Assembly: GCA_038326775.1 (NCBI GenBank)
Contig: JBBQKJ010000001.1
Span: 71,510 to 135,509, forward strand
Origin: Candidatus Geothermincolia bacterium
Lineage (GTDB): Bacteria; Actinomycetota; Geothermincolia; Fen-727; Anoxymicrobiaceae
Direction of reading: 5' to 3'
Length of the DNA: 64,000 bases
Shown here: positions 22,817 to 49,585 of the stretch, piece by piece
How the letters are laid out: each line of letters opens with the position of its first letter
How positions within the stretch are numbered: the first letter of the stretch is position 1
Made by a program: the position numbers and the translations under genes
Notes under the pieces: generated by a model
The model's database searches: none
What the model was told of the DNA's origin: nothing
Seen by the model: the letters and a program-made list of their open reading frames with translations, nothing else

Positions 22817-22832
22817 TGGAGGTGCGCGCGTT

Positions 22833-24936: not shown

Positions 24937-24973
24937 TTGACAAAGAACATACATATTGTATATTGTCGACAAT
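24937..24973 (+). promoter_or_regulatory. Putative sigma70-like promoter of the GRE operon (TTGACA at 24937-24942, 16-nt spacer, TATATT at 24959-24964) overlapped by two palindromic operator candidates: ATACATATTGTAT (24949-24961) and ATTGTCGACAAT (24962-24973).
   Basis: Hexamers and palindromes read from the sequence. Located in the divergent GntR/GRE intergenic region about 50 nt upstream of the GRE1 start. Confidence 0.4.
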
Positions 24974-25014
24974 TGAGGGGGAAGCTGGCACCTGGTGCAA
25001 AGGGGATGGTCTGT

Positions 25015-27681: not shown

Positions 27682-27695
27682 GAGGGGTGGGTAGA

Positions 27696-33126: not shown

Positions 33127-34155
33127 ATGGCTCTTGATAGAATCAATTCCTGGAAGAAAAAAGCGGTCGCGTTAGCCAGGAATTCTGGCGGGGGGCGGCT
33201 GAACATGGACCTCGATATTCAGGGGCTGGTCTTCAATATCCAAAAATTCAGCATCGACGACGGCCCGGGAATCCGGACCACCGTCTTCATGAAGGGATGT
33301 CCCTTCAGATGCCCGTGGTGTTCCAACCCAGAGTCCATCAACCCCTATCCCGAGGTCATCACGAAATTCGACGCTCTCTGCAAAGACTGCGGTCGCTGCC
33401 AGGATTCCTGCGAGATTGGGGCTATTAAGGTGATCGAGAGCCTGCTACCCGGAGACGACCGGCCGCGGGAGCGCACCCGCGACCTCGACCGCCATCTGTG
33501 CAACAGATGTATGAAATGCGTGGAAGCCTGCCCGACCGGCGCCTTGAGTAGCGTGGGAGAGGCCAAGACTGTAAGGGAAGTTCTCGAGGTTGTGGAACAG
33601 GACCGCCCGTTCTACGAAAACAGCGGTGGGGGAGTGACCCTTTCTGGCGGAGAGCCTCTCATGCAGCCCGATTTCGCTCTGGCGCTGCTGAGGGAAAGCA
33701 AGAGGAGGGGTCTTCATACGGCCCTGGACACATGCGGTCAAGCGCCAACCGATTCCCTGGAGGCCCTGCTGCCCTTCCTGGACCTGGTCCTCTACGACGT
33801 AAAACACACTGACCCCACAGCCCACGAGAAGGCGGTGGGCTCGGATAACCTGACCATTCTCGAGAACCTGCGATTCCTCAGCGGCAAGGTCGCCATCTGG
33901 CTCCGCGTTCCGTTGATACCCGGCTTCAACGATGACCTCGAGACCCTGCGGGATATCGTGGAGCTGGCCGGGGAAGTCTGCATCGAAAGATTGTTTTTCC
34001 TGCCCTACCACCGATGGGGATCTGGCAAATATCCCGGTTTGGGAAGGGAGTACGAGCTCGCGAATACAGGCGAGATCTCGGCGAACAAGCTGGAAACGGT
34101 GAAGGAGCTTTGTGGCTCATCGGGAATCGCCGCCTGCGAGATCGCCAGCGAATGA
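33127..34155 (+). CDS. Glycyl radical enzyme activating enzyme (radical SAM) with an inserted ferredoxin-like two-cluster domain, 342 aa. An alternative start at 33205 (MDLDIQGLVFNIQKFS...) is possible.
   Basis: CPFRCPWCSNPE radical-SAM CxxxCxxC immediately after FSIDDGPGIRTTVF. CKDCGRCQDSC and CNRCMKCVEAC extra clusters. GGEPL SAM motif. Confidence 0.9.
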   Translation: MALDRINSWKKKAVALARNSGGGRLNMDLDIQGLVFNIQKFSIDDGPGIRTTVFMKGCPFRCPWCSNPESINPYPEVITKFDALCKDCGRCQDSCEIGAIKVIESLLPGDDRPRERTRDLDRHLCNRCMKCVEACPTGALSSVGEAKTVREVLEVVEQDRPFYENSGGGVTLSGGEPLMQPDFALALLRESKRRGLHTALDTCGQAPTDSLEALLPFLDLVLYDVKHTDPTAHEKAVGSDNLTILENLRFLSGKVAIWLRVPLIPGFNDDLETLRDIVELAGEVCIERLFFLPYHRWGSGKYPGLGREYELANTGEISANKLETVKELCGSSGIAACEIASE

Positions 34156-34165
34156 TTCTGCCGAA

Positions 34166-34762
34166 ATGGATAGAGGAGAGAGCCAGTTGGGTAAGAAAGA
34201 GGAGTTGATCGAGGAGATCCTCCAGGTGGAGTGGGAGATGTTCACTTCGGTCCGCGCCAGGGGAAGAAGTGCCCTCTGCCAGGAAGATCCCGATTCCTTC
34301 CGGATCATCAGAGCGGCCAACTTCATGACCTGGTCAGATGACACCCTTACCAGCTACCTGGACGATGTAAAGACGGCCGGGAGCCTGGGCAGGAACCTGA
34401 TGACCGAGAAATACGCCCGCATGGAGGGCATCATCCCACCGCTCAACCCGGCGGTCCAACCGATTATTGACAAAATCGTAGAACAGGAATGCCTGTGGGC
34501 GGAGGATTTCTCGCGGAGCAACCCGAGCGCAAGATTAGCCCGTCCCATATATGCTCGCGACGAATCACCTGGCGTCGTCTCCTCCGAGACCTACTCCAGG
34601 GCAGAGCTGGAAACGTATTCCGCCCGCACCCTCGAACAGTACTACTCGGATGTCATGGGCATGTTGTCCGGGGGTGAGAACCGCATCGAGTTCGCGGTTC
34701 GCTACATGCGGGAGCTGGCATCGATTAGAAAGAGGAGCGGGCGTGTTCGGTTACGTTCCTGA
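34166..34762 (+). CDS. Conserved hypothetical protein, about 199 aa, immediately downstream of the activase. No Fe-S motif. Possibly DUF4125-like.
   Basis: ORF in operon position with the GRE/activase genes. Family assignment from memory only; low certainty. Confidence 0.4.
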   Translation: MDRGESQLGKKEELIEEILQVEWEMFTSVRARGRSALCQEDPDSFRIIRAANFMTWSDDTLTSYLDDVKTAGSLGRNLMTEKYARMEGIIPPLNPAVQPIIDKIVEQECLWAEDFSRSNPSARLARPIYARDESPGVVSSETYSRAELETYSARTLEQYYSDVMGMLSGGENRIEFAVRYMRELASIRKRSGRVRLRS

Positions 34763-34876
34763 CGCAAAGACTTGAGAAAGTGCAAGCTGCGGAGGTCGAG
34801 CAGGATAAGCACCCTACCGGTGGTTGATTGTTTCTCCGGCCTGTTGACAGTTGCTGGAAACCATATTTACAATGGC

Positions 34877-35743: not shown

Positions 35744-36976
35744 ATGAGATACCAGGAATTGTTCCCCGTTCCGATCGAGTGGCTTCAGGATTCTGACAGG
35801 TCGATGGTCGAGACGATCTCCTTATGGGCCGAGCAGGAGGTGAAGTCGAAGCGCCTCGAGCACAAGGAAGATTACGAAGGTCTCCTGCTGCCGGCGATGC
35901 GCAAGCTCTTTTTAGACATCGGCCTCCAGTCCATGATGCTCCCCGAGGAGCTGGGCGGCGGCGGGATAGACTCGCCGGATGCCGCTGTAACGACTACCGC
36001 GGTCCTTGAGCAGGTCGCCGCGGCGGATTCAGGCATCGGGTTCCTGTTCGCCAACGCGCTCGCCCTGCAGTACGCCCTCGCGATATCGCCCAACAAGAGC
36101 GCCGAGCCCCTCAAGGAGGCGGCCCCGGTGTTCACCGGTGGCGACATCGCGCTCTGCTCGCTTGTGCTCCCCGCCTACGGCTCCGACACGAAAGAGCGCC
36201 CGCGCTATTACGGCCTGGACTACCCCGCCACGGCCGTGAAGACCGGCGCCGGTTGGGTCGTGAGCGGCGGACCGGCGCGCCCACAGTGCTGCGGCGCGAC
36301 CGCGAGCATATTCGGGGTGGTCTGCGACCTGGGCGACGGTACTCCCGGGATGCTGATAGTCCCCGCCGGCGCGAAGGGCGTGAAGAAAGGCAAGCCGTTC
36401 AAGAAGACCGGCCTGGCCGCGAGCGTGAATGCCGACGTGACCTTCAAGGATGTCAAGGTGCCGGGAAGCGCCCTGGTGCTCGAGGGGATCGAAGCGCTGC
36501 GCGCTGTGCTCTCATGGTATTACATGGCCTGCGCCGCGGTGTGTGCGGGCTCGCTGCAGACGACTCACGAGATACTCCAGGAGTGGGGCGACACCCGGGT
36601 CATAAAGGGCAAGGGCCAGGTGTTCAAGGAGAACCCGCTGGTCGCCTCCCTGATGGGTGAGATCGGTGGCAAGATGGGCACGAGCCGCCTGCTTACCTAT
36701 AACCTGGCCAGGATGCTCTCGCGCCCCGATGTCTACGGGCCCGCCGGTGCGGGCAGCCTTCACGTGTCGGCTATCTCGGCTTTCAAGCAGGTGGGACGCA
36801 TGGCCATGGAGGCCATGGACAACACGATGGAGCTCATGGCCTCCGCCGGGTACGCCACCGAGTGGAACCTCGAGCGATACTGGCGTGACGTCAAGACAGT
36901 GGAGACTTACGTGGTCCCCGAGACTGTCGCCCAGACCTGCATGGCCAGGCAGTACTTCAACCTCAAACAACTCTAA
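35744..36976 (+). CDS. Acyl-CoA dehydrogenase-fold protein, degenerate 'alpha-type', 410 aa. Paralog of 21584..22816.
   Basis: Collinear with 21584..22816 (…KRLE.KEDYEGLL.PA...L..D.GLQ..., C-terminal ERYWRDVKTVE). GAGGTGG RBS. Confidence 0.6.
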   Translation: MRYQELFPVPIEWLQDSDRSMVETISLWAEQEVKSKRLEHKEDYEGLLLPAMRKLFLDIGLQSMMLPEELGGGGIDSPDAAVTTTAVLEQVAAADSGIGFLFANALALQYALAISPNKSAEPLKEAAPVFTGGDIALCSLVLPAYGSDTKERPRYYGLDYPATAVKTGAGWVVSGGPARPQCCGATASIFGVVCDLGDGTPGMLIVPAGAKGVKKGKPFKKTGLAASVNADVTFKDVKVPGSALVLEGIEALRAVLSWYYMACAAVCAGSLQTTHEILQEWGDTRVIKGKGQVFKENPLVASLMGEIGGKMGTSRLLTYNLARMLSRPDVYGPAGAGSLHVSAISAFKQVGRMAMEAMDNTMELMASAGYATEWNLERYWRDVKTVETYVVPETVAQTCMARQYFNLKQL

Positions 36977-37030: not shown

Positions 37031-38296
37031 ATGCGGACAATAGATGACTTTACCAGGCCCCTCGAGTACCTGAGCCCGCTCGACCGTTACCTCGGAGAGA
37101 TAGGCCGCAAATGGGCGGACACCGAGGTGATACCCATCAGGCGCGATTTCGACGAGGACTGGGAGCACCACAAGTTGATCGAGCCGTGCTTCAGGTCTCT
37201 CCAGGCAGAGATCGGCTTCCAGCGAATGCTGTTCCCGGAGGACCTCGGGGGCTGGGGCCTCGGCCATTCCGGGTACATGGGCACGGGCGCGGCCCGTCTT
37301 TTCGAGGAAGTCGCGAGGGCCGACTCGGGCATGGCCGTCGCGTTCGGCGTCCTCTTCTGGCCGCTGGTGATGATATGCGTAGAGCCGCATGTCAACCGGC
37401 GCCTTTGCGAGGAGTTCGCGCCGATGTTCATGGAGTCCCGCCCGGTGTTCGCCGCAAACGCGATGACCGAACCCCAGGGTGGAGCGGATATCGAGAACAT
37501 GGAGATCGTCGGTGGCAGCACCATTCAGACGACCGCGGTCCTCGAAGGCGACGAGTGGGTGATAAACGGGCATAAGCTCTGGCCCACTAACTCCGGCGGG
37601 GTGGCCGACCTTTTCGGGGTCGTATGCACCACCAACCCGGGCTCGAAAGACCCTGACGACTTAGCCTTCATATTCGTCCCCGCCAAGACCCCTGGCTGCA
37701 CCCAGGGCGGGCCTTACGAGAAGGCGGGTATGGCCGCGGACAAGAACAGCGACATCTGGTTCGACAACGTGCGGGTGCCTTCCTGGTTCCGGGCCTGTGG
37801 CCCGGGCCTCGACGCATTGTACTTCAAGGAGGTCGTCTCGCTCGGCAACCTTGGCAGTCTGGCGTTCGTCAGCGGCGCCATGATGAACGTCTGGGAGATC
37901 TTAAGGGATTTCACAAGCGAGACTACGTTCCGGGGTAAGCCGCTGAAGGAGAACGACGACGTGGCGGGGGTGCTCGCCAACTTCGCGGGTGGCGTTGACA
38001 TCATCAGGGTCCTCACTTATCAGTACGCGAGGATGCTCGACAGGCCGGACCTCTACGGGGACCGGTGGTCCGAAGAGATAGTCGCCAAGGGCAGGGCTTA
38101 TAAGTATTTCGCCTGCGACAAGGCCGTCGAGGACCTCAAGAAGGTCATGAACCTGATGGGGGCGCACGGAAGCGACCGCGCGCACGACGTGGAGAAGCAC
38201 TGGCGAGACATCAAGATAGTCCAGCTCTGGATGGGCGGCAAGCAGCTTTGCCAGATGGAGGTCGCCCGCTGGTTCTATGAATGCGAGACCCTGTGA
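37031..38296 (+). CDS. Acyl-CoA dehydrogenase family protein ('beta-type'), 421 aa. Paralog of 22833..24098.
   Basis: MRTIDDFTRPLEY... N-terminus shared with 22833. Motifs NAMTEPQGGADIEN, EWVINGHKLWPTN, GMAADKN. AGGAGGAG RBS. Confidence 0.7.
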   Translation: MRTIDDFTRPLEYLSPLDRYLGEIGRKWADTEVIPIRRDFDEDWEHHKLIEPCFRSLQAEIGFQRMLFPEDLGGWGLGHSGYMGTGAARLFEEVARADSGMAVAFGVLFWPLVMICVEPHVNRRLCEEFAPMFMESRPVFAANAMTEPQGGADIENMEIVGGSTIQTTAVLEGDEWVINGHKLWPTNSGGVADLFGVVCTTNPGSKDPDDLAFIFVPAKTPGCTQGGPYEKAGMAADKNSDIWFDNVRVPSWFRACGPGLDALYFKEVVSLGNLGSLAFVSGAMMNVWEILRDFTSETTFRGKPLKENDDVAGVLANFAGGVDIIRVLTYQYARMLDRPDLYGDRWSEEIVAKGRAYKYFACDKAVEDLKKVMNLMGAHGSDRAHDVEKHWRDIKIVQLWMGGKQLCQMEVARWFYECETL

Positions 38297-38339
38297 GTTC
38301 GCGAATGCCGGGTTGGAGACGATTCAAGGCGGTGAGGTG

Positions 38340-39044
38340 ATGGAAGAGACGTCGTTGCCGCGCAGAGGGCCGATCGAGGGCACCAGCAGGGTGGTCCGCG
38401 AGCTCCTGCGAACCCCGAGGTTCAAGAAAACGGTGAACATCCTCCTGAGCGAGCTGGACCCTGAGAACACCGGCTTGCTCGTGAAGACGCTGATGTGGGA
38501 AGACCCGGAGTTATTCCTGAGCCTGTTCGGTGCCACGCCCGATATCGCGAATGTCGCCATCAACGGGTTGCTCGAGCTGTCCCGCCAGCTGTCCAACTTC
38601 CCCCCCGGGCTTCTCGCGAGCTTCCTGTCCGTCCTGATGGAGGGGCTCGAGATGGAGAGCCTCGGCACGGCTGTCGGGAAGGTGCGGGATCTTCTGGTGG
38701 AAGTCCGCGACAGCGGAGGACAGCCGCTCGTAGATTCTCTTACAGACCTCCTCAGAAGGTTCGCCAGGGGGGCAACGGGCTTCACACCGGTTTCCGGCGC
38801 TCCCTCGGTATCGGCGGACAAGGTCGTGGACAGCGTCTTGCCAGTGCTCGCTTCGGCCGCCGCGAGATTCGGCGGGGAGGCCGCGCGCGAGGGTTCGGAG
38901 ACGAGCGCCGCGGTCAAGAAGCTGGCGGACGGCGTGAGGGATATCGCCTCCAGGAACCCCGAGTTCATGAAATCGGTCGTAGCCCCGCTGGTGGAGGCAG
39001 GCAAAGCCGCGCTGGCCGGAACGGACGCAGGGGAGGGCTCCTGA
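38340..39044 (+). CDS. Hypothetical alpha-helical protein, 234 aa, paralog of the next gene. No Cys, Ala/Leu-rich.
   Basis: GGTGAGGTG RBS then ATG. Shared block ...R.PAF.......L.....DPE....L....LWED.EL.LS..G..P.I.N.....LEL.RQ..NFP.GLL... with 39044..39643. Confidence 0.5.
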   Translation: MEETSLPRRGPIEGTSRVVRELLRTPRFKKTVNILLSELDPENTGLLVKTLMWEDPELFLSLFGATPDIANVAINGLLELSRQLSNFPPGLLASFLSVLMEGLEMESLGTAVGKVRDLLVEVRDSGGQPLVDSLTDLLRRFARGATGFTPVSGAPSVSADKVVDSVLPVLASAAARFGGEAAREGSETSAAVKKLADGVRDIASRNPEFMKSVVAPLVEAGKAALAGTDAGEGS

Positions 39045-39643
39045 TGGAAAACGCAATATTGGGGTCAGGTCAGATTTCTGCAATTGGAAAGCCGTCCCAG
39101 GCGGGGGCGGGCTCTCGAGTCCTTAGGGAGATAATAAAAACCCCCGCATTCCTGGAAATAATCAAGCTCCACGCCAAGGGCTTCGACCCCGAGTCCGCCC
39201 GCGAGTTGGTGCGCGCGTTCCTGTGGGAGGACGTGGAACTCTCGCTCAGCTTTGTGGGCACGGTCCCCGAGATAGTCAACTACCTGGCCGCCGCGGTGCT
39301 GGAACTGGGCAGGCAGATGAACAACTTCCCCGGCGGGCTCCTCGACCAGTACGTGATGCAGAGTGGCTCGGAGATCGACGTGGAGGTGCTCAAGGAGCTT
39401 CCCGGCGTCTTCGGCCCGTTGCTTGACAACATCAGGTTCAAGAAGACCGCGGCGATGGGGCTCGGCAAGGCGGTGAACGCGGGTGCCGGGTTTGTGAACC
39501 GCGCGGCCGCGAGTAACCCGCACTTCGTACGGGACGTCCTCTCGGAGGTCGACGGGCTGGAGGTTTTACGCGCGTCGTTCGCGGTGGCGCGTTCGGTAAT
39601 GAAGTGGTTCGTATCAGGTGTTTCACGTCTATTCGGCAGGTAG
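39044..39643 (+). CDS. Hypothetical alpha-helical protein, 199 aa, paralog of 38340..39044. Start overlaps the previous stop (TGATG). The first ~17 codons coincide with a partial copy of the palindromic repeat.
   Basis: Manual frame analysis. Similarity to the upstream paralog begins at ...GSRVLREIIKTP. Confidence 0.5.
   Translation: MENAILGSGQISAIGKPSQAGAGSRVLREIIKTPAFLEIIKLHAKGFDPESARELVRAFLWEDVELSLSFVGTVPEIVNYLAAAVLELGRQMNNFPGGLLDQYVMQSGSEIDVEVLKELPGVFGPLLDNIRFKKTAAMGLGKAVNAGAGFVNRAAASNPHFVRDVLSEVDGLEVLRASFAVARSVMKWFVSGVSRLFGR
39046..39095. repeat. Partial inverted copy of the palindromic repeat tail (CAATATTGGGGTCAGGTCAGATTTCTGC is the reverse complement of the GCAAGAAAGTGACCTGACCCCAATGTTACAT-type tail).
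   Basis: About 24/30 matches to the reverse complement of the tail of copy A, by eye. Confidence 0.4.
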
Positions 39644-39680
39644 TAGGCAATAGTGCCTTATCCATGTGAGGTGATGCGAG

Positions 39681-40967
39681 TTGAGCGCTAAAGAGACGGG
39701 AAAGGAAGTTATGGAGCTCTCCGGCGAGGAGAGGGCGGCGCGTTTCAAGGAAGCGTTCGCAAGCTACGATGGGAAGGCCCTGGCACAGAGCGCCAACCAG
39801 TTCTCCCTGATGATGATGGCGGCGCACGGCGAGAACCCCGACCTGGCGAGCGAGGCTTTTCCGGCCATCGAGACGGCGCTCGCCGACATAGACTTCGGCA
39901 AGATGCGTGAGGCTATCATGGCGTTGCTCGACTACGGCGGCGCGGTGGTGTCCAAAGCGCTCGAGGAGGGGCTCGCGAACCCGGTCGTGATAGCCAACCT
40001 GGTGGGAGTCCTGCCACCGCTGGCGAACAGTCTCATCGACGCGCTCGCGGTCCTGCTGGACAACCTGGACCTCCCGGCCGAGATACTGGCAAGCGCGCTG
40101 TTCAACGTCCTGAGCGCGCTCGACGCGGAGAAGCTCGGGCACGTGCTCTCGGAGATATCAAAACAACTGAACCTACTGCACGCAGGCAACTACATCTTGG
40201 GGGGCGACGAGCCGCGCCTCCGGGCGGTGTTCACCGAGTTCACAAAGAAGGTCCTTGACAACATGGACGCCGACGTAGTGGCGAAGGCCCTGGTGGCCCT
40301 TGGCGAGGACGGCGAGATAATCGCCGGAGTCCTCGTGGACCTCCTCGCGCGGGACCCGGAGCTCATCGATACCATGGCATGGGCGTCCGTGGAACTCACC
40401 AACACCGTGGCACGGGTGCTGGCGAACGCGCTGAGCCGGGTCGCGGAGTGGCCGGACGAGGTGCTCGCCGTTCTGGGCAAGGAGGGGCGCATACTCGATA
40501 CCGTGGAGATGGGTCGCGCCGCCGACTCTTTCGTGACGTATGCCTTGCGCCTCAGAGAGGCGAATCCCGGCCTGCATAGAGAGCTCTACACCCGGGCGCT
40601 CCAGCCGGTGAACACCGAGAGCGTGGAGGTTCACCTGCGGGCCGTCGCGGGCGACCTCAAGGCCGCCGCGGTCGCACACCCTGGAATCAGCAAAGCCCTG
40701 GAGCCGGAGGAGATGGGCCGGCGCGTGAACGAGATGCTGGCGGGTTTCAACAAGGCGGCGAGCCCCGCCGGGGTCAAGGAATATCTCTCGAGGGTGTTCT
40801 CGGAAATCGACTCGCGCGAGCTCGAGGTGGCCGTTCGAAACATCGCCGGCGGAGTTGTGGACGGCCTCTTCGCGAACGCACAGGCGGCAAAGTCGATATT
40901 GAAGGCTGTCGCCTCGAGCGCATGGAAGTTGACGAAAAACATGGTCGGCCTTCTCGTCAAGCGGTAA
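39681..40967 (+). CDS. Hypothetical alpha-helical protein, 428 aa, Ala/Leu-rich, no Cys, TTG start.
   Basis: ORF in co-oriented gene string between the ACAD-like and HAD/BCR genes. No recognisable motif. Confidence 0.45.
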   Translation: MSAKETGKEVMELSGEERAARFKEAFASYDGKALAQSANQFSLMMMAAHGENPDLASEAFPAIETALADIDFGKMREAIMALLDYGGAVVSKALEEGLANPVVIANLVGVLPPLANSLIDALAVLLDNLDLPAEILASALFNVLSALDAEKLGHVLSEISKQLNLLHAGNYILGGDEPRLRAVFTEFTKKVLDNMDADVVAKALVALGEDGEIIAGVLVDLLARDPELIDTMAWASVELTNTVARVLANALSRVAEWPDEVLAVLGKEGRILDTVEMGRAADSFVTYALRLREANPGLHRELYTRALQPVNTESVEVHLRAVAGDLKAAAVAHPGISKALEPEEMGRRVNEMLAGFNKAASPAGVKEYLSRVFSEIDSRELEVAVRNIAGGVVDGLFANAQAAKSILKAVASSAWKLTKNMVGLLVKR

Positions 40968-41002
40968 CGGTAGAGTCTAACCTGAGTTTTGAGGTGATTT
41001 AA

Positions 41003-42148
41003 GTGGCAAGCGTAAAAGTAGGAAGCGCCATGGAGCAGGTCATCAAGCAGTCGGAGGTCGTGGAGAACGACTTTGTCAAGAAGTGGAAAGAGGGCGGCGG
41101 CAAGGTGCTGGGGTACGCCTGCGTCACCACTCCGCCCGAGATAATCGACGCGGCGGGCATCCTGCCCTACCGCCTCAGGGCGCTCGGCAACCCCAACACG
41201 GAGATAGCCGACGCGCACCTTGCGCGATTCAACTGCAGCTTCTGCCGCTCCTGCCTGCAGCTCGGCCTGGACGGTACCTACGCGTTCCTGGACGGGTCTA
41301 TCGAGACCAACGGGTGCGACCACCTGCGGGGGATGTTCGAGAACTGGGAGTATGTCCAGCCGTCGGAGTTCTTTCACTACGTCAAGGTGCCGCACCAGGT
41401 CAATGAGGACGCGATGGTGTACTACATCGAGGAGCTCAGGCTCTTCAAGTCCGCCATCGAAGAGCACTTCGGGGTCAAGATAACCGACGAGGCGATGAAG
41501 GGCGCGATAGAGCGCCAGGAGACGATAAGGGACAAGCTGCGCGAGGTGTACGAGATGCGGATGGGCCGGAAGCCGGCGTTCACCGGCACGGAGGCACTCT
41601 CCATATTCCTGCTCGCCTCCGCGGTGCCTTACGACGACTTTATCAGGCTGGCCGAAAGCGCCATCGAGGAGCGCAGGGGAACGGGCGTGTCCGGCTACCG
41701 CGCGCGCCTGATGCTCTGCGGCGCCGCAACCGACGAGCTCGAACTCATCAACGCCATCGAGGACGTTGGCGGACTGGTCGTCACCGACGGGCTGTGCTAC
41801 GGGGCCAGGGCGTTCTGGAGCCCGGTCGACACGACCAGGGACCCGATAGAGGCGCTCGCCGACGTTTACCTCAAGGACCTGCTATGCCCCAGGATGTACG
41901 AGGACTATCCGCGGCGGCGGGATTTTGTCCTGGACGCCGTGAAGAAGTACGACGTGGACGGCGTGATGGTCATGCATAACAAGTTCTGCGACGTGCACGG
42001 CGTCGATAACGTGCAGCTCAGGCTAGATCTGGAGAAGCGCAGCATCCCCGTGCTGCAGCTCGAGAAGGAGTACGGCTCGACAGCCGACATAGGCCGCATC
42101 AGGACCAGGGTTCAGGCTTTCCTGGAGAGGATTGGTGATCAGTCATGA
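41003..42148 (+). CDS. HAD/BCR family subunit, BcrC/HgdB-like, 381 aa. An ATG at 41030 with an AGGAAG RBS is an alternative start.
   Basis: K.LGYACVTTPPEIIDAAGILPYRL and conserved Cys (CSFCRSC, NGCDHL, ...FCDVHG) typical of the beta-type dehydratase/reductase subunits. Confidence 0.7.
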   Translation: MASVKVGSAMEQVIKQSEVVENDFVKKWKEGGGKVLGYACVTTPPEIIDAAGILPYRLRALGNPNTEIADAHLARFNCSFCRSCLQLGLDGTYAFLDGSIETNGCDHLRGMFENWEYVQPSEFFHYVKVPHQVNEDAMVYYIEELRLFKSAIEEHFGVKITDEAMKGAIERQETIRDKLREVYEMRMGRKPAFTGTEALSIFLLASAVPYDDFIRLAESAIEERRGTGVSGYRARLMLCGAATDELELINAIEDVGGLVVTDGLCYGARAFWSPVDTTRDPIEALADVYLKDLLCPRMYEDYPRRRDFVLDAVKKYDVDGVMVMHNKFCDVHGVDNVQLRLDLEKRSIPVLQLEKEYGSTADIGRIRTRVQAFLERIGDQS

Positions 42149-43641
42149 ACGCTGTCACCGCTACCGCAACCCAATCGTACACCTCGGGGGGTAAGGGGCC
42201 CCAGGATTTGAAGCTCGGCCTGTTCGATCGCGTGTCCGGCCTTTTCGAGATTATCGGAAAGCTTCCAGACGTGATGAGCGACGAGGAGGTCGACGGCCTT
42301 ATGGCCGTGCTGGCTGAGGACACGCGCAAGTCGTTGAGCGCAATGCTGATACCACGCGCCCGGGAGGGCAGCATGGCGTTCATGAAGATGCTTGCCAGGT
42401 GGCTCGAGGACGCCAGGAACGCCCCGCTGGAGGGAAAGAAATCCATCCTGATTCCCTTCTGCTTTCCCCCGGAGATCATTCACTGTTTCGAAAACTCCTT
42501 TCCATTAACAAGTGAGGTGCTCTCCTCGCTGGGGGTGATAGCGCTCGAGGGACAGGGCGAGCGGTACTACGACATGGCTCTCGGCCTCGGACTGCCCGAC
42601 CACATCTGCTCGGCCAACGCCGTGGAGGTGGGGTCCATGCTGGGCAGCGACGACTTTCAGCCGCAGGCGATAGTCAGCGCCGCGGTCGGCTCCTGCGATA
42701 TCAACTCCAAGACCCACGAGCTGGTATCCAACTACTTCGGCATCCCCCTGTTCATACTGGAGAAGCCTGTGGATGGCTCCGAGCGTGGCCGCGCGCAGTA
42801 TCAGAAGAACTTCGACAGGCTGGTCCGCGAGCTCGAGGAGTACCTCGGGGAGGAGCTTACGGATGACATGCTGCGGCGGACCTGCGAGAAGGTCAACAAG
42901 GCAAACAGGCTGATGGCAGAGCTGTGGGACCTGCACAAGGCGGTTCCAGACCCGGTGCCCAACCTGTTCTCTCTCTACTCATACGCGGCCAGGTTTGCCA
43001 TGTGGGGCACGGACCTGGCCATCGAGAGTATGAGGACCCTTGTCGACGTTTCCAAAAGGCGCTTGAAGGAGGGGGCTTACCCTGCCGACAGCGAGGTCGC
43101 CCGCTGCTTCCTGACCTATACCAGCTACTACTTCGACCTGGCGGGGCTTTTCAACTGGATGGAGGAACGGGGTTACACTTACCTCGGTGACGGGCTCGGC
43201 CTGCTATTCCCAGGTGTCATAGACACCTCTTCGCGCGAAAGCATGCTCTGGGGGATGGCCGAGGAGGCATGGAACATGCCGATGACCAGGCAGGTGGGCG
43301 GAGAATCGATGTCAATGTGCTGGCTGGAGGACGCGCTCTACGCGGCAAAGGATCTCGGCGCCGACTGCGCGATCTACTCAGGCCACCACTCCTGCAAGCA
43401 GACCTGGAGTGTGGCCTCGATCCTGCGCACGGAGTTGATGAAGCGGGCGGGCGTGCCCATGCTCGCCCTGCAGGGCGACTCCTGGCTCAAGCGGACCACT
43501 CCCATAACAGTCATACAGCAGGAGATAGACGAGTTCATCAAGAACGTGGTATTGCCGAAGAGCGGGGCCAAGAGGAAGTTGCGCAGGCGGGGGGTCGGGG
43601 CCGCGGGCACCGCGAGCACAGCGGAAACCACGAGCGCTTGA
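42145..43641 (+). CDS. HAD/BCR family subunit, HgdA/BcrB-like, 498 aa. Start overlaps the previous stop (ATGA).
   Basis: Paralogous to 20090..21538 and 43655..45058 (SILIPFCFPPEIIHCFEN, GLPDHICSANAVE, SGHHSCKQTWSV). Confidence 0.75.
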   Translation: MNAVTATATQSYTSGGKGPQDLKLGLFDRVSGLFEIIGKLPDVMSDEEVDGLMAVLAEDTRKSLSAMLIPRAREGSMAFMKMLARWLEDARNAPLEGKKSILIPFCFPPEIIHCFENSFPLTSEVLSSLGVIALEGQGERYYDMALGLGLPDHICSANAVEVGSMLGSDDFQPQAIVSAAVGSCDINSKTHELVSNYFGIPLFILEKPVDGSERGRAQYQKNFDRLVRELEEYLGEELTDDMLRRTCEKVNKANRLMAELWDLHKAVPDPVPNLFSLYSYAARFAMWGTDLAIESMRTLVDVSKRRLKEGAYPADSEVARCFLTYTSYYFDLAGLFNWMEERGYTYLGDGLGLLFPGVIDTSSRESMLWGMAEEAWNMPMTRQVGGESMSMCWLEDALYAAKDLGADCAIYSGHHSCKQTWSVASILRTELMKRAGVPMLALQGDSWLKRTTPITVIQQEIDEFIKNVVLPKSGAKRKLRRRGVGAAGTASTAETTSA

Positions 43642-43654
43642 GAGAGGAGAAGCA

Positions 43655-45058
43655 ATGCCTGTGATAGCCAGCACCATCCCCGGCTCGGGACTCTTCGACA
43701 GGGTCCAGCAGCTCTTCGAGGTTGTTCTCAAGGTACCCGACGAGATGAGCCACGAGGAGGCCCGGGGTATCATCGACGTGATGCCCCCGGACGTTGCCGC
43801 CACGCTCGAGGCTGTCCTTGAAGACCGGATCCGGCGCGCCGGGATCATCTTCCTGAAGATGGTCGGGCAGTGGCTGAAGAACGCCAGGGAGGCTAAGGCC
43901 GCGGGAAAGAAGGTCATCCTCGTGCCGTTCAACTTCGTTCCCGAGCTCGTACACGCGTTCGAGAACGCGGTGCCGCTGACCAGCGAGATACTCTCCACGC
44001 TGGCGGGCAGCGCCACCGAGGGCAAGGGGCACCGCTACTGGGATTACGCGATGGGCCTCGGCATCCCCGACCACCTGTGCTCCGCGAGCGCCATCGAGCT
44101 GGGCTCGATGCTGACCGGCGTGGACTTCGAGGCGGATGCCATCATCTCCTGCACCGCCGGCGCATGCGACGCCAACTCGAAGATCCACGAGTTCGTCGCC
44201 AACTACATGGGCATCCCGCAGTTCGTGGTGGAGAAGCCGGTGGACGACACAGAGCGCGGCATAGAGCAGTACAAGAAGAACTTCTTCAGAATGGTCGAGC
44301 AGCTCGAGGAGTTCGTGGGGGAGACCATCAAGGAAGAGCGCCTGCGCGAGGTCGTCGATTACTGCAACCGCTCCGCGGAGCTACACTACCAGCTCTGGGA
44401 GCTCAAGAAGAACGCCCCCTGCCCGGTGCCGAACATATACAACATGTTCATCTACGCCGCCCGCTTCACGCAGTGGGGCAGGCCCGAGTCGCTGAGGACG
44501 ATGGAAGTCATGGTGGAGGAGGCTAAAAAGCGGCTGGAGGCGGGCGATTACCCGGCGGAAAAGGAGCTCGCGCGCGTCGGATGGCTGTACACGAGCTACT
44601 ACATAGACTTCGCCGGGCTCTTCAACTGGATGGAGGAGCAGGGATACACGCACCTCTTCGACGTGCTCGACCTCTTCTTCCCGGAACCGATCTCGACGGA
44701 GAGCAGGCAGACGATGCTCGAGGGCATCTGCGAGGCGGCCAGGACGTTTCCCATGACCCGCCAGATGGGTGCCGAGTCGATGTCGGTGGCGTGGATAGAT
44801 GACGCCATCAGCATGGCGAAGATGCTGGACGCGAACTGCGCCATCTACTGCGGTCACCACGCCTGCAAGCAGACCTGGAGCGTCATCTCCATAGTCCAGA
44901 AGGAGCTGATGGACCGCATAGGGGCGCCGGTGCTGTCCCTTCAGGGCGACGCCTGGCTGAGCGGAATGACCCCGGTGTCGACCCTGCAGGAAAACATCGA
45001 CGAGTTCATGCGTAACGTTGTGGTCAAGAAGCGAAAGGTCAAAACACGAAAAAGGTAA
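43655..45058 (+). CDS. HAD/BCR family subunit, HgdA/BcrB-like, 467 aa.
   Basis: Paralogous blocks (VILVPFNFVPELVHAFEN, GIPDHLCSASAIE, CGHHACKQTWSV). Confidence 0.75.
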   Translation: MPVIASTIPGSGLFDRVQQLFEVVLKVPDEMSHEEARGIIDVMPPDVAATLEAVLEDRIRRAGIIFLKMVGQWLKNAREAKAAGKKVILVPFNFVPELVHAFENAVPLTSEILSTLAGSATEGKGHRYWDYAMGLGIPDHLCSASAIELGSMLTGVDFEADAIISCTAGACDANSKIHEFVANYMGIPQFVVEKPVDDTERGIEQYKKNFFRMVEQLEEFVGETIKEERLREVVDYCNRSAELHYQLWELKKNAPCPVPNIYNMFIYAARFTQWGRPESLRTMEVMVEEAKKRLEAGDYPAEKELARVGWLYTSYYIDFAGLFNWMEEQGYTHLFDVLDLFFPEPISTESRQTMLEGICEAARTFPMTRQMGAESMSVAWIDDAISMAKMLDANCAIYCGHHACKQTWSVISIVQKELMDRIGAPVLSLQGDAWLSGMTPVSTLQENIDEFMRNVVVKKRKVKTRKR

Positions 45059-45141: not shown

Positions 45142-45960
45142 ATGTCGTTTGCTGGAATCGACGTGGGCTCGCTGACCGCGCAGGCGGTCCTGATAGAGGA
45201 CGGCCGCACCCCGTTACTCAAGACGATAGGCGTAAAGCTCCTCTCGAAAAGCATAAGGGTGAAACCCAACCCTTTGGATTCTGCCCGCACCGTGATGGGG
45301 CAACTCCTCGATGAGCATAGCCTGTCGTGGGGTGACATCACCTACTGCGTGAGCACCGGGTACGGACGCGACAAGGTCCAGGGCGAAGGGCTGGCCCAGG
45401 AGAACGTGAGCGAGATATCCTGCCACGGGATAGGTGCTTTCACCATCGCCCCGCAGGTCCGCACCATAATCGACATCGGTGGCCAGGACGCCAAGGTCAT
45501 CCGCGTCAACGAGAGCGGAGACCTGGTCAACTTCGTCATGAACGACAAGTGCGCCGCGGGCACCGGCCGCTTCCTGGAGGTCATGAGCCGCACCCTGGGC
45601 GTCTCGTTCGAAGACCTGGGCGGCATCGCGCTCAGGGCGCGGGGGAAGATCGAGCTCAGCTCGAGGTGCAGCATCTTCGCCGAGACCGAAGTCCTGCACT
45701 ATCTTCAGAAGGGTTTCGACAAGGCCGACCTGGCGGCCGGGACGTGCAAGTCCATGGCGGACAGGGTGATGGCCCTGGTGCGACGCGTGGGCTGGGAGAA
45801 AGAGGTCATGATGACAGGTGGCGTGGCCAAGAACGTCGCGGTCAAGGCGGAGCTGGAGAGGGTGCTCAACCTGAGGATGTTCGTCCCGCACCTCGACCCG
45901 CAACTGATGGGCGCTTTCGGCGCCGCCGTGCTGGCGCAGAAGGCAGGTGCTGCCCTGTGA
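45142..45960 (+). CDS. CoA-substrate-specific enzyme activase (HgdC/BcrAD/BadFG-type ASKHA ATPase), 272 aa.
   Basis: N-terminal ...GIDVGS...AVL... ; DKCAAGTGRFLE and the two-Cys [4Fe-4S]-bridging pattern of HgdC-like activators. Confidence 0.8.
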   Translation: MSFAGIDVGSLTAQAVLIEDGRTPLLKTIGVKLLSKSIRVKPNPLDSARTVMGQLLDEHSLSWGDITYCVSTGYGRDKVQGEGLAQENVSEISCHGIGAFTIAPQVRTIIDIGGQDAKVIRVNESGDLVNFVMNDKCAAGTGRFLEVMSRTLGVSFEDLGGIALRARGKIELSSRCSIFAETEVLHYLQKGFDKADLAAGTCKSMADRVMALVRRVGWEKEVMMTGGVAKNVAVKAELERVLNLRMFVPHLDPQLMGAFGAAVLAQKAGAAL

Positions 45961-45965
45961 AGACA

Positions 45966-46739
45966 ATGGGGATAGACATCGGCAACCTGCTCTCGAAGGT
46001 GGTCATCCTTGATGGGGACAAGTTGGTCGCGAGCGGAATAATGGACACCACCGGGAACGTGGCGAGCGAGATCGACATGCTGGTGAGCTCCGTCCTGCTG
46101 GACGCGGGCTTCGGGCTCGAAGGGCTGGATGCGCGCGCCGCCACCGGTGGCGGGGCCGAACTGCTGAGGGGCCTGGACTTCACCGAGGACGAGGTGACCT
46201 GCGTGGCGGCGGCGGGCGCTTACCTCCTGCCCGAGATAAACATGATAGTGCACGTCGGCGGCCAGAGCATCGCCTCGATTCTCATCAACGAGGACGGCGA
46301 CGTGGTCAACTTCATGCGCAACGACAAGTGCGCCTCGGGGTCCGGGCGCTTCCTGGAGGTCATGAGCCACGCTATTGGCGTGGGCATCGACGACATCGAT
46401 GGCGTGGTGGAGGGGGCCGAAAAGCCGGTTTCCATAAGCAGCCAGTGTGGTGTTTTCGCGGAGAGCGAGGTCATCACTCATGTTAACGACGGCGAGAAGC
46501 CGGCGGATATTGTCGCCGGTCTGTGCGACTCGGTGGCGAGCATCGTGTCCGCGCAGGCCCGCAAATTCACCGAGGGGGACAAGTATACCCTTACCGGTGG
46601 TGTAGCGAGGATAGACGCAGTCAGGGGACGTATAACGCAGAAGATGAACGGGACGTTCTACGAGTTTCCCCATGACCCGAGGCTGGCGGCCGCCGTCGGC
46701 GCGGCCCTGCTCGCCGGCATGGAAGAAGAAGAGGAGTAA
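45966..46739 (+). CDS. Second CoA-substrate-specific enzyme activase (HgdC-type ATPase), 257 aa. The 396-aa track ORF is an out-of-context upstream extension.
   Basis: MGIDIGNLLSKVVIL..., DKCASGSGRFLE. ATG at 45966 immediately after the stop of the first activase. Confidence 0.8.
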   Translation: MGIDIGNLLSKVVILDGDKLVASGIMDTTGNVASEIDMLVSSVLLDAGFGLEGLDARAATGGGAELLRGLDFTEDEVTCVAAAGAYLLPEINMIVHVGGQSIASILINEDGDVVNFMRNDKCASGSGRFLEVMSHAIGVGIDDIDGVVEGAEKPVSISSQCGVFAESEVITHVNDGEKPADIVAGLCDSVASIVSAQARKFTEGDKYTLTGGVARIDAVRGRITQKMNGTFYEFPHDPRLAAAVGAALLAGMEEEEE

Positions 46740-46785: not shown

Positions 46786-47502
46786 ATGGCCTTGTTCGAT
46801 GAACAGCTTGGCGAAGTAAGACGGATTCTCGCCGACTGGCGGGAAGGAGCCGGAGCGCGCGAGTTCAGCGCCGGGGAGCGGGCACCCTGGCCCGAAGGGC
46901 AGAGCCTCGTGCTGGAGGAGGACACAGCCCTCGAGCTCGGCAACCCCTCTGTCGCGTCCCTGTCTCTTCTGCTCTGGAGCGAGGGAGGCGACGTCGAGGA
47001 CGGGCGTATTACTCTCGTGGGGCCCGACGTACCTGAGGCGAAAGAGCGCAACGTGCCTTTCGCGCAGGTTGTCATAGCGGGTGGCTCCTTCGCAAGCGAG
47101 TACGACTCCTACCGCGACGCTCGGGACGCCGTTTACGATACCAGGCTCCATGGCTTCTCGGTGCGAACGATGCCCAGCAGGCAGAGCATCTGGTGCAGGG
47201 TGGCGCGCGTTGCCAGGGAGGAGGGTTTTTCCCTGGTGGATCTGGGGGCGGCCTTTATCGAGGCGCTCAAGAGCCTGGACGAGGTCTCGGCCGCACAGGT
47301 CGTCTTCGTGACCGCGAGCGTCGAGGACGTGAAGAAGCTGTCGGGCGCCGCGGCGGGCGCCCAGAGGATAGTCGACGCTATGATGAAGATGTACCAGGAG
47401 GAGAACTTCGACTGTGAGACCTGCGAGTACCAGGAGGTCTGCGACACCGTGATGGACCTGAAGATGATAAGGAAGAAGCTGACCGAAGGAAAGGTGCCCT
47501 GA
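46786..47502 (+). CDS. Hypothetical protein, 238 aa, with C-terminal Cys cluster FDCETCEYQEVCD. Stop overlaps the start of the CooC-like gene.
   Basis: ORF in operon position. No family recognised. Confidence 0.45.
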   Translation: MALFDEQLGEVRRILADWREGAGAREFSAGERAPWPEGQSLVLEEDTALELGNPSVASLSLLLWSEGGDVEDGRITLVGPDVPEAKERNVPFAQVVIAGGSFASEYDSYRDARDAVYDTRLHGFSVRTMPSRQSIWCRVARVAREEGFSLVDLGAAFIEALKSLDEVSAAQVVFVTASVEDVKKLSGAAAGAQRIVDAMMKMYQEENFDCETCEYQEVCDTVMDLKMIRKKLTEGKVP

Positions 47503-48245
47503 TGATCCTGTCGGTGTGCGGTAAGGGAGGCGTCGGCAAGACCACCGTTTCCGCGGTTGCGGCGCAGGCTCTCTCGGCCAGGGATGGAGTGCGCGCGCTA
47601 ATCGTCGACGCCGACCCGGCGGGCGGGCTTGGCATGGCGCTCGGGCTCACCCCTCGAAAGACGCTCAACGATGTTCGAAAGGAGATAATCGAGGAGGTCA
47701 AAGCTGGAGGGCGCGACGAGAAGGACCTGGCCGTCTCGCTCGATTACCTGCTCGCCGAAGCGCTTACGGAAAAGGGCAACCTGGCGTTCCTGTCCATCGG
47801 GCGGCCCGAGGACGTGGGCTGCTACTGCAAGGTGAACGTCATCCTCAAGGACGCAATCGAAGGCCTGGCGGGCCGCTTCGACGCGACCGTCATAGACGCC
47901 GAAGCGGGTATCGAGCAGGTCAACCGCAAGGTGATGAGCCCGGTCGATTACGTTTTGCTCGTGTCGGACACCTCGGCCAAGGCGGTCAGGGTCGCGGAGA
48001 CCATAAAGGGCGTCGCGGACAGCATGATCGGCGGCGAGGATGCCGGCCTGCTGGTCAACAGGGCGCGCGAAGGGCGCGAGGCCGAGAAGATTCGCATGGG
48101 GACCTCGCTCGAGGTGCTGGGCTGGATACCGGAGGACGACACCATCCGCCGGTTCGACGGCGAGGAGATATCCTTCCTCGAGCTGCCGGAGTGCCCCGCC
48201 CGCGAGGCCATCACCGCCGCTCTCGAGAAGACCGGCCTGCTATAA
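47502..48245 (+). CDS. CooC/AcsF-family P-loop ATPase (MinD/ParA superfamily), a putative metallocentre (Ni) insertion/maturation ATPase, 247 aa.
   Basis: Deviant Walker A GKGGVGKTT at the N-terminus plus the CooC-type CxC motif (EDVGCYCKVN) at the expected position. Confidence 0.7.
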   Translation: MILSVCGKGGVGKTTVSAVAAQALSARDGVRALIVDADPAGGLGMALGLTPRKTLNDVRKEIIEEVKAGGRDEKDLAVSLDYLLAEALTEKGNLAFLSIGRPEDVGCYCKVNVILKDAIEGLAGRFDATVIDAEAGIEQVNRKVMSPVDYVLLVSDTSAKAVRVAETIKGVADSMIGGEDAGLLVNRAREGREAEKIRMGTSLEVLGWIPEDDTIRRFDGEEISFLELPECPAREAITAALEKTGLL

Positions 48246-48383
48246 TTCATCTTGGGGTCAGACACCCTGACATGAATTTTCAGCGGCATCCGGATGTCTC
48301 GGATACAAATTCATGTCAGGGTACCTGACCCCAGGGTGAGAATGCACAAAAGTGACCTGACCCCAATGTTGCATTATGGATGA
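48246..48383. repeat. Palindromic intergenic repeat element, copy B (about 138 bp). Its tail reaches into the annotated start of the metallophosphoesterase gene.
   Basis: Alignment with copy A: ATTCAT..TGGGGTCAGACACC(T/C)TGACATGAATTTT ... inverted arm ... AAAGTGACCTGACCCCAATGTT(A/G)CAT...ATAGCG. Confidence 0.6.
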
Positions 48384-49488: not shown

Positions 49489-49585
49489 ACGGTCGGGGTT
49501 GCGTCGCTCACCCCCGCTTTGAACTTGTTAAACGCGAGCCCGATGTATAATAGCGGCACGACTGACCAAAGTGATGGGAGGAGTC

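Follow-up and report, generated by a model that had tools for sequence, protein, structure and literature searches.

Within the 64,000-nucleotide stretch of Candidatus Geothermincolia DNA analyzed here (the window), three co-oriented genes of no evident family, here called A, B, and C, lie between a pair of acyl-CoA dehydrogenase (ACAD) genes and a set of genes for a BCR/HAD-type radical enzyme. This raises the questions of whether they are genuine genes, what kind of proteins they encode, and what such proteins could do between two enzymes of this type.

Reading Frames and Composition of the Trio

All three reading frames were found where the preliminary description had placed them (Table 1). 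Gene A starts with the ATG at 38340, with GGTGAGG just 5' of it. Its TGA stop codon (39042–39044) shares the sequence TGATG with the ATG of B (39044–39046), and this overlap bears out the stop/start coupling that had been proposed for the pair; an RBS-type stretch, GGGGAGGG, is situated 5' of the B start. For C, the sequence GAGGTGA just precedes a TTG at 39681. A public annotation begins C at the ATG at 39711, but its orthologs open with an ATG (MSAKE... or MSPE...) at the position homologous to 39681, and the upstream start is therefore favored. The intergenic gaps measure 35–43 nt, and no terminator-like site was found on the + strand from 38296 to 41003. The GC3 values of A, B, and C are 0.83, 0.80, and 0.85, and those of the neighboring genes are 0.84–0.87. 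Codon-position GC3, RBS, and homologs all agree with real genes, and A, B, and C are genuine genes. The notion of spurious or decaying ORFs without function draws on their absent annotation and nothing further; it can be dismissed with near certainty, being refuted by the conservation of hundreds of homologs in two phyla, the neighbor-like GC3, the RBS and coupling, and confident AlphaFold2 models.

The proteins had been described as helical and devoid of cysteine, and C as rich in alanine and leucine, and each of these statements holds. There is no cysteine in A, B, or C of the window. Across the three families cysteine makes up 0.12–0.17% on average, compared with 1.6–2.4% in the neighboring enzymes, and a conserved Cys column, as in an Fe-S or Cys-ligated redox subunit, is present in none of the families. 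C consists of 16% Ala and 14% Leu. The AlphaFold2 models of A and C are all-helical, with 11 helices (pLDDT 80.5) and 19 helices (pLDDT 81.4), respectively. The GRAVY of the proteins is positive (0.08–0.23), and transmembrane prediction gave no convincing segment in them. Residues 91–116 of C are hydrophobic (KD 1.78), yet contain an invariant Asn and Pro.

Table 1. Features of the helical block and of the surrounding gene module (positions in the window)
Feature	Position	Strand	Description
ACAD1	35744..36976	+	Divergent acyl-CoA dehydrogenase-like subunit; no Pfam middle-domain match; conserved module partner
ACAD2	37031..38296	+	Acyl-CoA dehydrogenase, directly upstream of helical block
Protein A gene	38340..39044	+	234 aa; ORF, RBS, 49 homologs, AlphaFold2 model
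N-domain of A	38361..38693	+	Residues 8–118; module also in B and long/fused C; gap-free alignment
Protein B gene	39044..39643	+	199 aa; ORF, 25 homologs, paralogy to A
N-domain of B	39089..39421	+	Residues 16–126; gap-free alignment, hhalign
Protein C gene	39681..40967	+	428 aa from TTG 39681 (418 aa from ATG 39711); 62 homologs
C repeat unit 1	39714..40070	+	Residues ~2–120 (418-aa numbering); DFGK.RE, NPVV.AN.VG..PP..NS.; self-hhalign, conserved columns
C repeat unit 2	40068..40445	+	Residues ~120–245; LP.EILASALFN, LHAGN.ILGG.EP.; self-hhalign, conserved columns
C repeat unit 3 + cap	40446..40865	+	Residues ~246–385; hhalign 246–384 vs 2–155: 90.4%
Cationic amphipathic C-terminal helix of C	40878..40961	+	AAKSILKAVASSAWKLTKNMVGLLVKR; helix 390–417; pLDDT 69 falling to 58
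HGD-D subunits (three)	41003..45058	+	HGD1 41003–42148, HGD2 42145–43641, HGD3 43655–45058
BcrAD/BadFG-type ATPase subunits (two)	45142..46739	+	45142–45960; 45957/45966–46739
CdhC-like domain protein	46786–47502	+	Conserved end of module
CooC/AcsF-like P-loop ATPase	47502–48245	+	GCYCK motif; conserved end of module

Shared Domains and Repeats

A and B align by BLASTP with 42% identity over 91 aa (E 2e-22), and a comparison of their families with hhalign gives 99.9% (E 1.8e-33). They have in common an N-domain of 105–110 aa, which aligns without gaps over ~110 columns in the A family, the B family, and the fused forms; the block that the preliminary description had recognized in both proteins lies inside this alignment. 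The paralogy of A and B is thus confirmed, but its limitation to these two does not stand, because C is related as well (hhalign 96.6% with A and 95.2% with B). In A, the single canonical N-domain is followed by helices, an 'NPEF' helix, and an acidic C-terminal tail; in B, the single canonical N-domain is followed by a cap that carries a cationic amphipathic tail at its end. Residues E14, F21, and N64 are invariant in the N-domain, and R13, R17, T18, P19, W46, E47, and D48 are nearly so.

C is made up of three tandem copies of a ~120-aa helical unit related to the N-domain and is completed by a cap and a tail that is cationic. Comparison of C with itself by hhalign matches residues 120–394 with 2–328 (99.1%, E 4.9e-19), and the off-diagonal shifts are about 120 and 245 aa. 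In the model of C, the five helices of unit 2 (lengths 14/26/15/27/29) mirror those of unit 1 (13/21/17/26/28), and the N-domain HMM matches internal units of C in many loci. With supported internal repeats and an all-helical unit, C falls in the class of tandem helical-repeat proteins. Most of the invariant residues in the families are a P, N, G, or D with which a helix starts (NP.., DPE, TP.F, FP..LL), a pattern typical of helical repeats. C also contains invariant polar residues with no evident helix-cap role, namely E124, H157, N160, and E167, plus the motif DFGK.RE.

The longer C orthologs are B-C fusions, since they carry a full N-domain; B(1–145) is joined to C(41–418) in P0047, P0049, P0051, P0055, and P0059–62. 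Seven A-B double-domain proteins of 354–386 aa also occur. Judged by their sequences, A, B, and C constitute one helical-repeat superfamily that was previously undescribed.

Comparison with Known Families and Structures

The preliminary description could place the proteins in no known family, and systematic searches lead to the same result. Scans against Pfam-A and NCBIfam gave no match above the curated cut-off for A, B, or C, and PDB sequence-profile searches and Foldseek against the PDB revealed nothing significant for the trio families. When 50 C-family members, 49 A-family members, and 10 further architectures were scanned against Pfam/NCBIfam, a single protein, the C ortholog P0015, passed any cut-off. 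It matches FliG_C (PF01706) with 25.3 bits (cut-off 23.3, E 1.9e-5), at positions 26–68 of 108 only. Matches to FliG_C, over ~40 residues, occur in 5 of the 50 C members, the four besides P0015 at E 0.06 or worse, and the C of the window has none. FliG and MgtE-N (ARM-like) resemble A, B, and C in their tandem helical modules of ~100–120 aa with 'D.E.L'-type motifs, and they are non-catalytic, cofactor-free, and connect other proteins, a role that A, B, and C may share. In contrast to FliG and MgtE-N, the trio is encoded in a setting that has nothing to do with flagella or Mg transport, and there is no PDB-sequence or Foldseek match. At most, A, B, and C are candidate members of the FliG/MgtE-N group.

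The Apolipoprotein family (PF01442) matches A with 15 bits against a 90-bit cut-off (E 0.02), and weak matches are seen in 10 of the 49 A-family members (best E 1e-3). An apolipoprotein identity of A was rejected, because these scores are far below threshold and look compositional. Like A, B, and C, the apolipoproteins, apolipophorin-III, and phasins are Ala/Leu-rich, Cys-poor, all-helical, and amphipathic, and ApoA-IV and ApoLp-III are weakly matched in the PDB (E 0.3–0.7). However, A, B, and C lack the 11/22-mer repeats of apolipoproteins, and their conserved motifs, like the residues at their helix caps, point to a repeat fold that is globular and defined, unlike that of apolipoproteins or phasins. 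ACBP, SCP2, Phasin/Phasin_2, and ETF/ETF_alpha are absent from the hmmscan output for A, B, and C, even at E 0.1–1. Apart from that of P0015, the Pfam/NCBIfam matches in the trio and about 110 relatives (Apolipoprotein, FliG_C, DUF4702, TetR_C, and others) were sub-threshold and inconsistent and were set aside. The best PDB profile match, a globin (E 0.0017), falls on N-terminal-extension columns of the C profile and was judged compositional, as were APP E2, Vipp1, ApoA-IV, and designed repeats, all at E > 0.01. No literature on this gene cluster was found.

Distribution and Gene Order

Word-based searches retrieved 62 homologs of C, 49 of A, and 25 of B, and scanning 1.84 billion proteins with a profile HMM of the N-domain yielded 426 clusters at 50% identity. 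The earlier suggestion that these genes are candidates for uncharacterized families is well founded, the clusters forming an unannotated superfamily. The homologs, which number in the hundreds, share 28–90% identity and come from two phyla, and their length, order, and motifs are preserved.

The preliminary description had left the conservation of the three genes next to ACAD and HAD/BCR genes as a point to be checked, and the gene order proves to be nearly invariant in about 60 loci of two phyla. The module reads ACAD1-ACAD2-[A][B][C], two to four HGD-D genes, two BcrAD genes, CdhC-like, and CooC-like, and the trio occurs almost only within this ACAD/HGD-D/BcrAD context. Its hosts are uncultured Actinomycetota (Geothermincolia) and Bacillota MAGs. 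Directly upstream of the helical block lies ACAD2 (41 of 44 loci), and directly downstream lies HGD1 (34 of 40). The block itself is composed of A-B-C in 14 loci, A-C in 10, B-C in 5, C in 3, A-B in 2, and B in 1, so that no single one of the three is universally required. Loci with more HGD-D genes do not clearly have more canonical N-domains. In split clusters, A and B remain with the ACADs and C with the HGD genes: a TetR gene separates ACAD1-ACAD2-AB from C-HGD in L030 and L031, ACAD-ACAD-AB stands alone in L033 and L070, and L016 has C with four HGD genes and no ACAD. At its head the module has a conserved TetR gene; Bacillota loci are without it but keep the trio proteins. An SCP2 gene was seen near one related locus.

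In the window, HGD1 is BzdN-like (E 1.2e-54 to BzdN), the matches of the ACAD pair to pimC/pimD are weak, and no ETF genes were seen in the locus. A second ACAD pair, at 21539–24098, is without helical partners. Glycyl-radical enzyme (GRE) genes nearby are outside the conserved module; a GRE/microcompartment link was rejected, as related loci have no GRE genes and shell proteins were not encountered. The had, fld, lcd/acr, and bzd operons, in which an ACAD accompanies a 2-hydroxyacyl-CoA dehydratase or class I benzoyl-CoA reductase, likewise place ACAD, HGD-D subunits, and BcrAD-type ATPases side by side. These known operons carry etfBA or ferredoxin genes and are not known to contain a helical-repeat trio. 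The module differs from them in its paralogous pair of ACADs, in its HGD-D genes, of which there can be four, and in having genes for a CdhC-like domain protein and a CooC-like ATPase.

C-terminal Tails

B ends in a cationic amphipathic tail, SVMKWFVSGVSRLFGR, and C in a helix of the same character (Table 1). The net charge of the C tail is +6 in the window. Over the last 25 aa, the family mean is +5.0 ± 1.1 for C (n = 62), +4.1 ± 1.3 for B (μH 0.50), and −2.2 ± 1.6 for A (n = 49). The tails of B and C contain W/F and have μH values of 0.3–0.6. Proteins that fuse B to C have lost the internal B tail and retain the terminal tail alone; a terminal cationic amphipathic helix of net +4 to +5 is conserved in B, C, and the fusions. 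B, C, and every fused form end in a short cationic helix with W, F, or L, similar to the membrane-targeting helices of MinD and FtsA. MinD has a KRLFGG-type end, which the end of B (...SRLFGR) resembles. The rest of B and C is unrelated to MinD and FtsA and has no homology to them, and the likeness is a functional analogy only. Taken as sequence features, the B and C tails are suggestive of membrane-binding elements.

Possible Roles of the Trio

The reading that we favor, though tentatively, is that A, B, and C have no catalytic function and belong to the module as dedicated subunits, forming an adaptor that would bridge the ACAD and the BCR/HAD-type radical enzyme. The trio would assemble into a hetero-oligomer in which A and B face the ACAD and C faces the HGD-D proteins, and would keep both enzymes in one assembly. 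For example, an enoyl- or dienoyl-CoA intermediate, being reactive, could then be handed directly between them, an idea modeled on 2-hydroxyacyl-CoA dehydratase/ACAD pathways. With their cationic amphipathic helices at the C terminus, B and C may anchor the assembly at the cytoplasmic membrane, or they may bind an acidic partner such as the tail of A. An accessory or scaffolding role specific to the pathway, as had been suggested from gene position, would fit a synteny that is strict and pathway-specific, the fused genes, and the absence of cofactor motifs. Also counted in favor of the adaptor are the coupling of the genes, the paralogy of all three proteins, their partition in split clusters, the conservation at helix starts, the tails, and the positive GRAVY of proteins in which no transmembrane segment was predicted. 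As a counterpoint, the invariant polar residues of C hint at a ligand or active site and not at a passive scaffold. The variable block composition and the ACAD pair at 21539–24098 were likewise noted as counterpoints to the adaptor reading.

An alternative that we regard as unlikely, but worth weighing, is that the helical modules are ligand carriers, comparable to acyl-CoA-binding proteins or apolipophorin-type helix bundles, whose ligand would be the acyl-CoA substrate, the intermediate, or a hydrophobic moiety of either, and which would shuttle or solubilize this ligand on its way between ACAD and radical enzyme. Such a role would suit the conserved N-domain residues R13, E14, R17, W46-E47-D48, and N64, the invariant polar residues in C, and the positive GRAVY. 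Heteromeric ACAD pairs elsewhere (PimCD, ChsE-type) serve bulky substrates, and the heteromeric ACAD pair with its weak pimC/pimD matches, the weak apolipoprotein-type matches in the A family, and the SCP2 gene near one related locus point the same way. However, the apolipoprotein scores (15 versus 90 bits) look compositional, neither ACBP nor SCP2 matches any of the three proteins, and three to five module copies per operon, together with fusions, are more typical of structural assembly. It is more doubtful still that the trio acts transiently, in chaperone-like folding, assembly, or cofactor loading of the ACAD or the Fe-S enzyme, perhaps with the CooC-like ATPase. Accessory proteins without cofactors in metalloenzyme operons are often chaperones, and the module has maturation-type genes of its own, for the CooC/AcsF-like ATPase (GCYCK) and the CdhC-like protein. 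Yet the trio lies about 6 kb from the CooC-like gene, follows ACAD or HGD genes and not CooC/CdhC in split clusters, and has no metal-binding Cys or His motifs, and its location among structural genes and the translational coupling of A and B suggest stoichiometric subunits.

The invariant E124, H157, N160, and E167 of C, and the TetR gene at the module head, which in L030 lies between AB and C, could also be taken to indicate that C or the trio is an all-α enzyme or a regulatory or sensor component, controlling for example the adjacent TetR regulator or the ATPase. We consider this very improbable: similarity to any enzyme or signaling family is lacking, the architecture is one of repeats with conservation mostly at helix caps, and the Bacillota loci without TetR retain the proteins. 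A more far-reaching proposal, to which we give little credence, is that the trio is the self-assembling core of a membrane-tethered supercomplex, in which A and B would sit on the heteromeric ACAD and C on an ATP-driven radical enzyme with an ACS-like, possibly Ni-dependent domain, and dehydrogenation would be coupled to radical chemistry without ETF. If true, uncultured Geothermincolia and Syntrophomonadaceae would possess a metabolic machine of a new kind.

As a genomic marker, the superfamily indicates almost perfectly a 10–12-gene anaerobic module that had not been studied before. The module unites ACAD and ATP-dependent BCR/HAD-type radical enzymes, enzyme types at the heart of the anaerobic metabolism of aromatics, amino acids, and fatty acids, with a domain resembling acetyl-CoA synthase and a maturase of the CooC type. 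Even if its role is modest, the family merits domain definition, and the start-codon corrections improve the annotation of these MAGs. If the trio does form the bridging scaffold of the adaptor reading, it would represent a new way to organize oxygen-sensitive radical enzymes and flavoenzymes in one machine, and co-purification would provide a handle on the module's substrate.

Results

The three open reading frames that the preliminary description had proposed, including the stop/start overlap between A and B, were all found at their positions on the + strand. Genes A, B and C lie between an acyl-CoA dehydrogenase pair (ACAD1, ACAD2) and HGD-D family subunits (HGD1–3). Their GC3 values (A 0.83, B 0.80, C 0.85) are like those of the flanking genes (0.84–0.87), and no terminator-like hairpin was found on the + strand between 38296 and 41003. 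The start of A used here is common to most orthologs; the public call is 255 aa. For C, the orthologs have an ATG at the residue homologous to the TTG (MSAKE.../MSPE...), so the start chosen earlier is better than the ATG at 39711 of the public record (418 aa). The calculated pI is 4.9 for A, 6.8 for B and 4.9 for C.

Features of the module and its surroundings in window coordinates
Feature	Position	Details
Partial second module copy	20045-24098	HGD-D gene, then ACAD pair
Glycyl-radical enzyme paralogs	24916-27681, 27672-30359, 30435-33110	three in tandem
Activase	33127-34155	
DUF4125 protein	34112-34762	
Promoter match	34844-34873	sigma-70-like, TTGACA-18-TACAAT, 11/12
ACAD1	35744-36976	
ACAD2	37031-38296	
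A	38340-39044	234 aa; 43 nt after ACAD2; ribosome-binding site GGTGAGG
A/B junction	39042-39046	TGATG: TGA stop of A overlapping ATG of B; preceded by GGGGAGGG
B	39044-39643	
C	39681-40967	start TTG 39681; GAGGTGA just 5'
HGD1-3	41003-45058	
Second BcrAD gene start	45957-45968	probably GTG 45957, or ATG 45966
CdhC-like, then CooC/AcsF-like	46786-48245	
Metallophosphoesterase	48376-49488	
1011-aa protein	49571-52606	

A and B are paralogs, as had been proposed (BLASTP E 2e-22, 42% identity over 91 residues; hhalign 99.9%, E 1.8e-33). The part they share is an N-domain of ~105–110 residues, which aligns without gaps over both families and the fused proteins and carries the motif R-[VIL]-[LV]-R-E-[LI]-[LI]-[RK]-T-P-x-F ... 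D-P-E ... V ... W-E-D ... P-x3-N ... E-[LM] ... F-P-x2-L-L ... D. C, which had been listed outside the paralog pair, is related too: hhalign matches it to the A-family profile (96.6%, E 5e-10) and to the B profile (95.2%). Off-diagonal matches of C to itself (residues 120–394 on 2–328, 99.1%, E 4.9e-19; 246–384 on 2–155, 90.4%) show that it is built of three ~120-aa units in tandem and a cap, in accordance with the repeating helix lengths of its AlphaFold2 model (13/21/17/26/28 in unit 1, 14/26/15/27/29 in unit 2).

Orthologs of C occur in three forms: short, as in the window; ~489 aa with a degenerate N-domain; and 502–557 aa with a canonical B-like N-domain. The longest consist of B residues 1–145 followed directly by C residues ~41–418 and are B-C fusions. 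Seven proteins of 354–386 aa with two strong N-domains each came out of a full HMM scan using the N-domain profile; these are A-B fusions. Fusions thus connect B with both A and C.

No above-threshold match to Pfam or NCBIfam was obtained for A, B and C of the window. When 50 C-family and 49 A-family members were scanned singly, only scattered weak matches appeared: FliG_C over ~40 residues in 5 of the 50, and Apolipoprotein in 10 of the 49 (best E 1e-3). The C ortholog P0015 just passed the FliG_C cut-off (25.3 against 23.3 bits), at profile positions 26–68 only. Ten further architectures gave no domain at all, and profile searches of PDB sequences gave no significant match. The AlphaFold2 models of A (pLDDT 80.5, pTM 0.60) and C (pLDDT 81.4, pTM 0.63) are confident enough for fold searching, and Foldseek against the PDB found no match to them at E <= 0.001. 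The earlier failure to place the proteins in a known family therefore stands. Neither by sequence nor, so far as tested, by fold does the superfamily belong to any described family; it may be distantly related to ARM-like folds. Literature searches brought up nothing about the cluster or the proteins.

As described previously, C is rich in Ala (16%) and Leu (14%), and A, B and C contain no cysteine. Family-wide, Cys makes up 0.12–0.17% of residues versus 1.6–2.4% in the neighbours, a roughly ten-fold depletion, and there is no conserved Cys column; an Fe-S role is therefore excluded. Helix-start P, N, G or D residues account for most invariant positions (NPVV, DPE, TP.F, FP..LL, LP.E, EP.F), which is the pattern of a helical repeat fold. 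No transmembrane segment was found, and GRAVY is positive (0.08–0.23). The last 25 residues form an acidic tail in A (-2.2 +/- 1.6, n = 49). In B (+4.1 +/- 1.3, n = 26), C (+5.0 +/- 1.1, n = 62) and the A-B fusions (+5 to +9) they are cationic and amphipathic and contain Trp or Phe. The B-C fusions have lost the internal B tail and retain the terminal one alone. The last helix is the lowest-confidence part of the C model, as expected if it is exposed.

Word-indexed searches yielded 62 clusters for C, 49 for A and 25 for B, every one unnamed or 'hypothetical'; their sources are MAGs of Actinomycetota (Candidatus Geothermincolia, Anoxymicrobiaceae), with a few Bacillota. An exhaustive profile search gave 426 clusters at E <= 1e-3, 324 of them at <= 1e-10. 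Genes follow a nearly invariant order in 24 species-representative genomes and 35 metagenome contigs, (TetR)-ACAD1-ACAD2-[A]-[B]-C-HGD1-(HGD2)-HGD3-BcrAD-BcrAD-CdhC-like-CooC-like, a positive outcome for the check proposed earlier on conservation beside the ACAD and HAD/BCR genes. ACAD2 is immediately 5' of the helical block in 41 of 44 loci, and HGD1 immediately 3' in 34 of 40. The block is A-B-C (14 cases), A-C (10), B-C (5), C only (3), A-B (2) or B only (1).

Where the cluster splits, A and B go with the ACADs and C with the HGD-D genes. At loci L030/L031 a TetR gene divides ACAD1-ACAD2-AB from C-HGD-HGD-BcrAD-BcrAD-CdhC-CooC-HGD-HGD; at L033 and L070 the ACAD pair and an AB fusion are followed by unrelated opposite-strand genes; at L016 C stands first, ahead of four HGD-D genes, and no ACAD precedes it; and L064 reads ACAD-ACAD-A-B-HGD1-HGD3, without C. 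Four HGD-D genes occur in some module versions (L013/L038 and L030/L031), and in L030 the CooC-like gene is followed by a further HGD pair and separated from the CdhC-like gene by an additional 66-aa ORF.

ACAD2 is remarkably well conserved: it is 72–93% identical in most related loci (L001–L068), in Actinomycetota and Bacillota alike, and 56–61% in the A-B-fusion lineage that diverges most. For ACAD1 the identity is only 44–79%, and it has no Pfam middle-domain match, pointing to a pair made up of a catalytic and a structural subunit. HGD1 is BzdN-like (1.2e-54) and the module ATPases are BzdQ/HgdC-like. The GTG of the second BcrAD gene overlaps the stop of the first as GTGA, and the two ATPase genes therefore look translationally coupled. 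The match of the CdhC-like protein (238 aa) is confined to the N-terminal domain of archaeal CdhC, the equivalent of domain 2 of bacterial acetyl-CoA synthase; the protein has a C-terminal CETCEYQEVC motif, and the CooC/AcsF-like ATPase a GCYCK motif. This pair is conserved at the module's end in two phyla, a hint that a BCR/HAD-type system may contain an unusual metal site.

The related loci rule out the glycyl-radical enzyme genes upstream as part of the module. None of the three, which are followed by the activase and then the DUF4125 protein, reaches an NCBIfam equivalog cut-off (best ~430–450 bits vs 1000–1100), which gives no substrate assignment for them. In the partial second copy, also upstream, the HGD-D gene is ~48% identical to HGD2/HGD3, and the ACAD pair shares 44% identity with ACAD1 and 68% with ACAD2; this copy contains no helical protein, BcrAD, CdhC-like or CooC-like genes. 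The region's best promoter match lies within the longest TetR ORF, 5' of its internal ATG codons, and a TetR start later than 34772 is probable. Downstream, the 1011-aa protein begins with a hydrophobic, signal-like segment, is rich in 'WAVG..G.I..' repeats and has a four-fold repeated unit at its C-terminal end. It follows the module together with the metallophosphoesterase in several Actinomycetota loci; in L001 a DUF5719 protein takes its position.

Discussion

A, B and C are a dedicated, non-redox, helical-repeat trio exclusive to this module. That they are not genes at all has a negligible chance and is refuted by their conservation. The favoured, though tentative, reading is that the trio forms a hetero-oligomeric adaptor. 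A and B would attach to the heteromeric ACAD, C to the BCR/HAD-type enzyme; the adaptor would hold the two together, and a reactive enoyl- or dienoyl-CoA would plausibly be handed over between them. Through its cationic tails the assembly might be held at the membrane or on acidic partners.

It is unlikely that the proteins are instead ligand carriers, and slightly less likely still that they serve as assembly factors. In C, E124, H157, N160, E167 and DFGK.RE are also invariant or almost invariant; an enzymatic or regulatory C is improbable.

New accessory families are not rare, but this trio marks, and may organise, a wholly uncharacterised ATP-dependent radical-enzyme/ACAD/ACS-like module in uncultured anaerobes.
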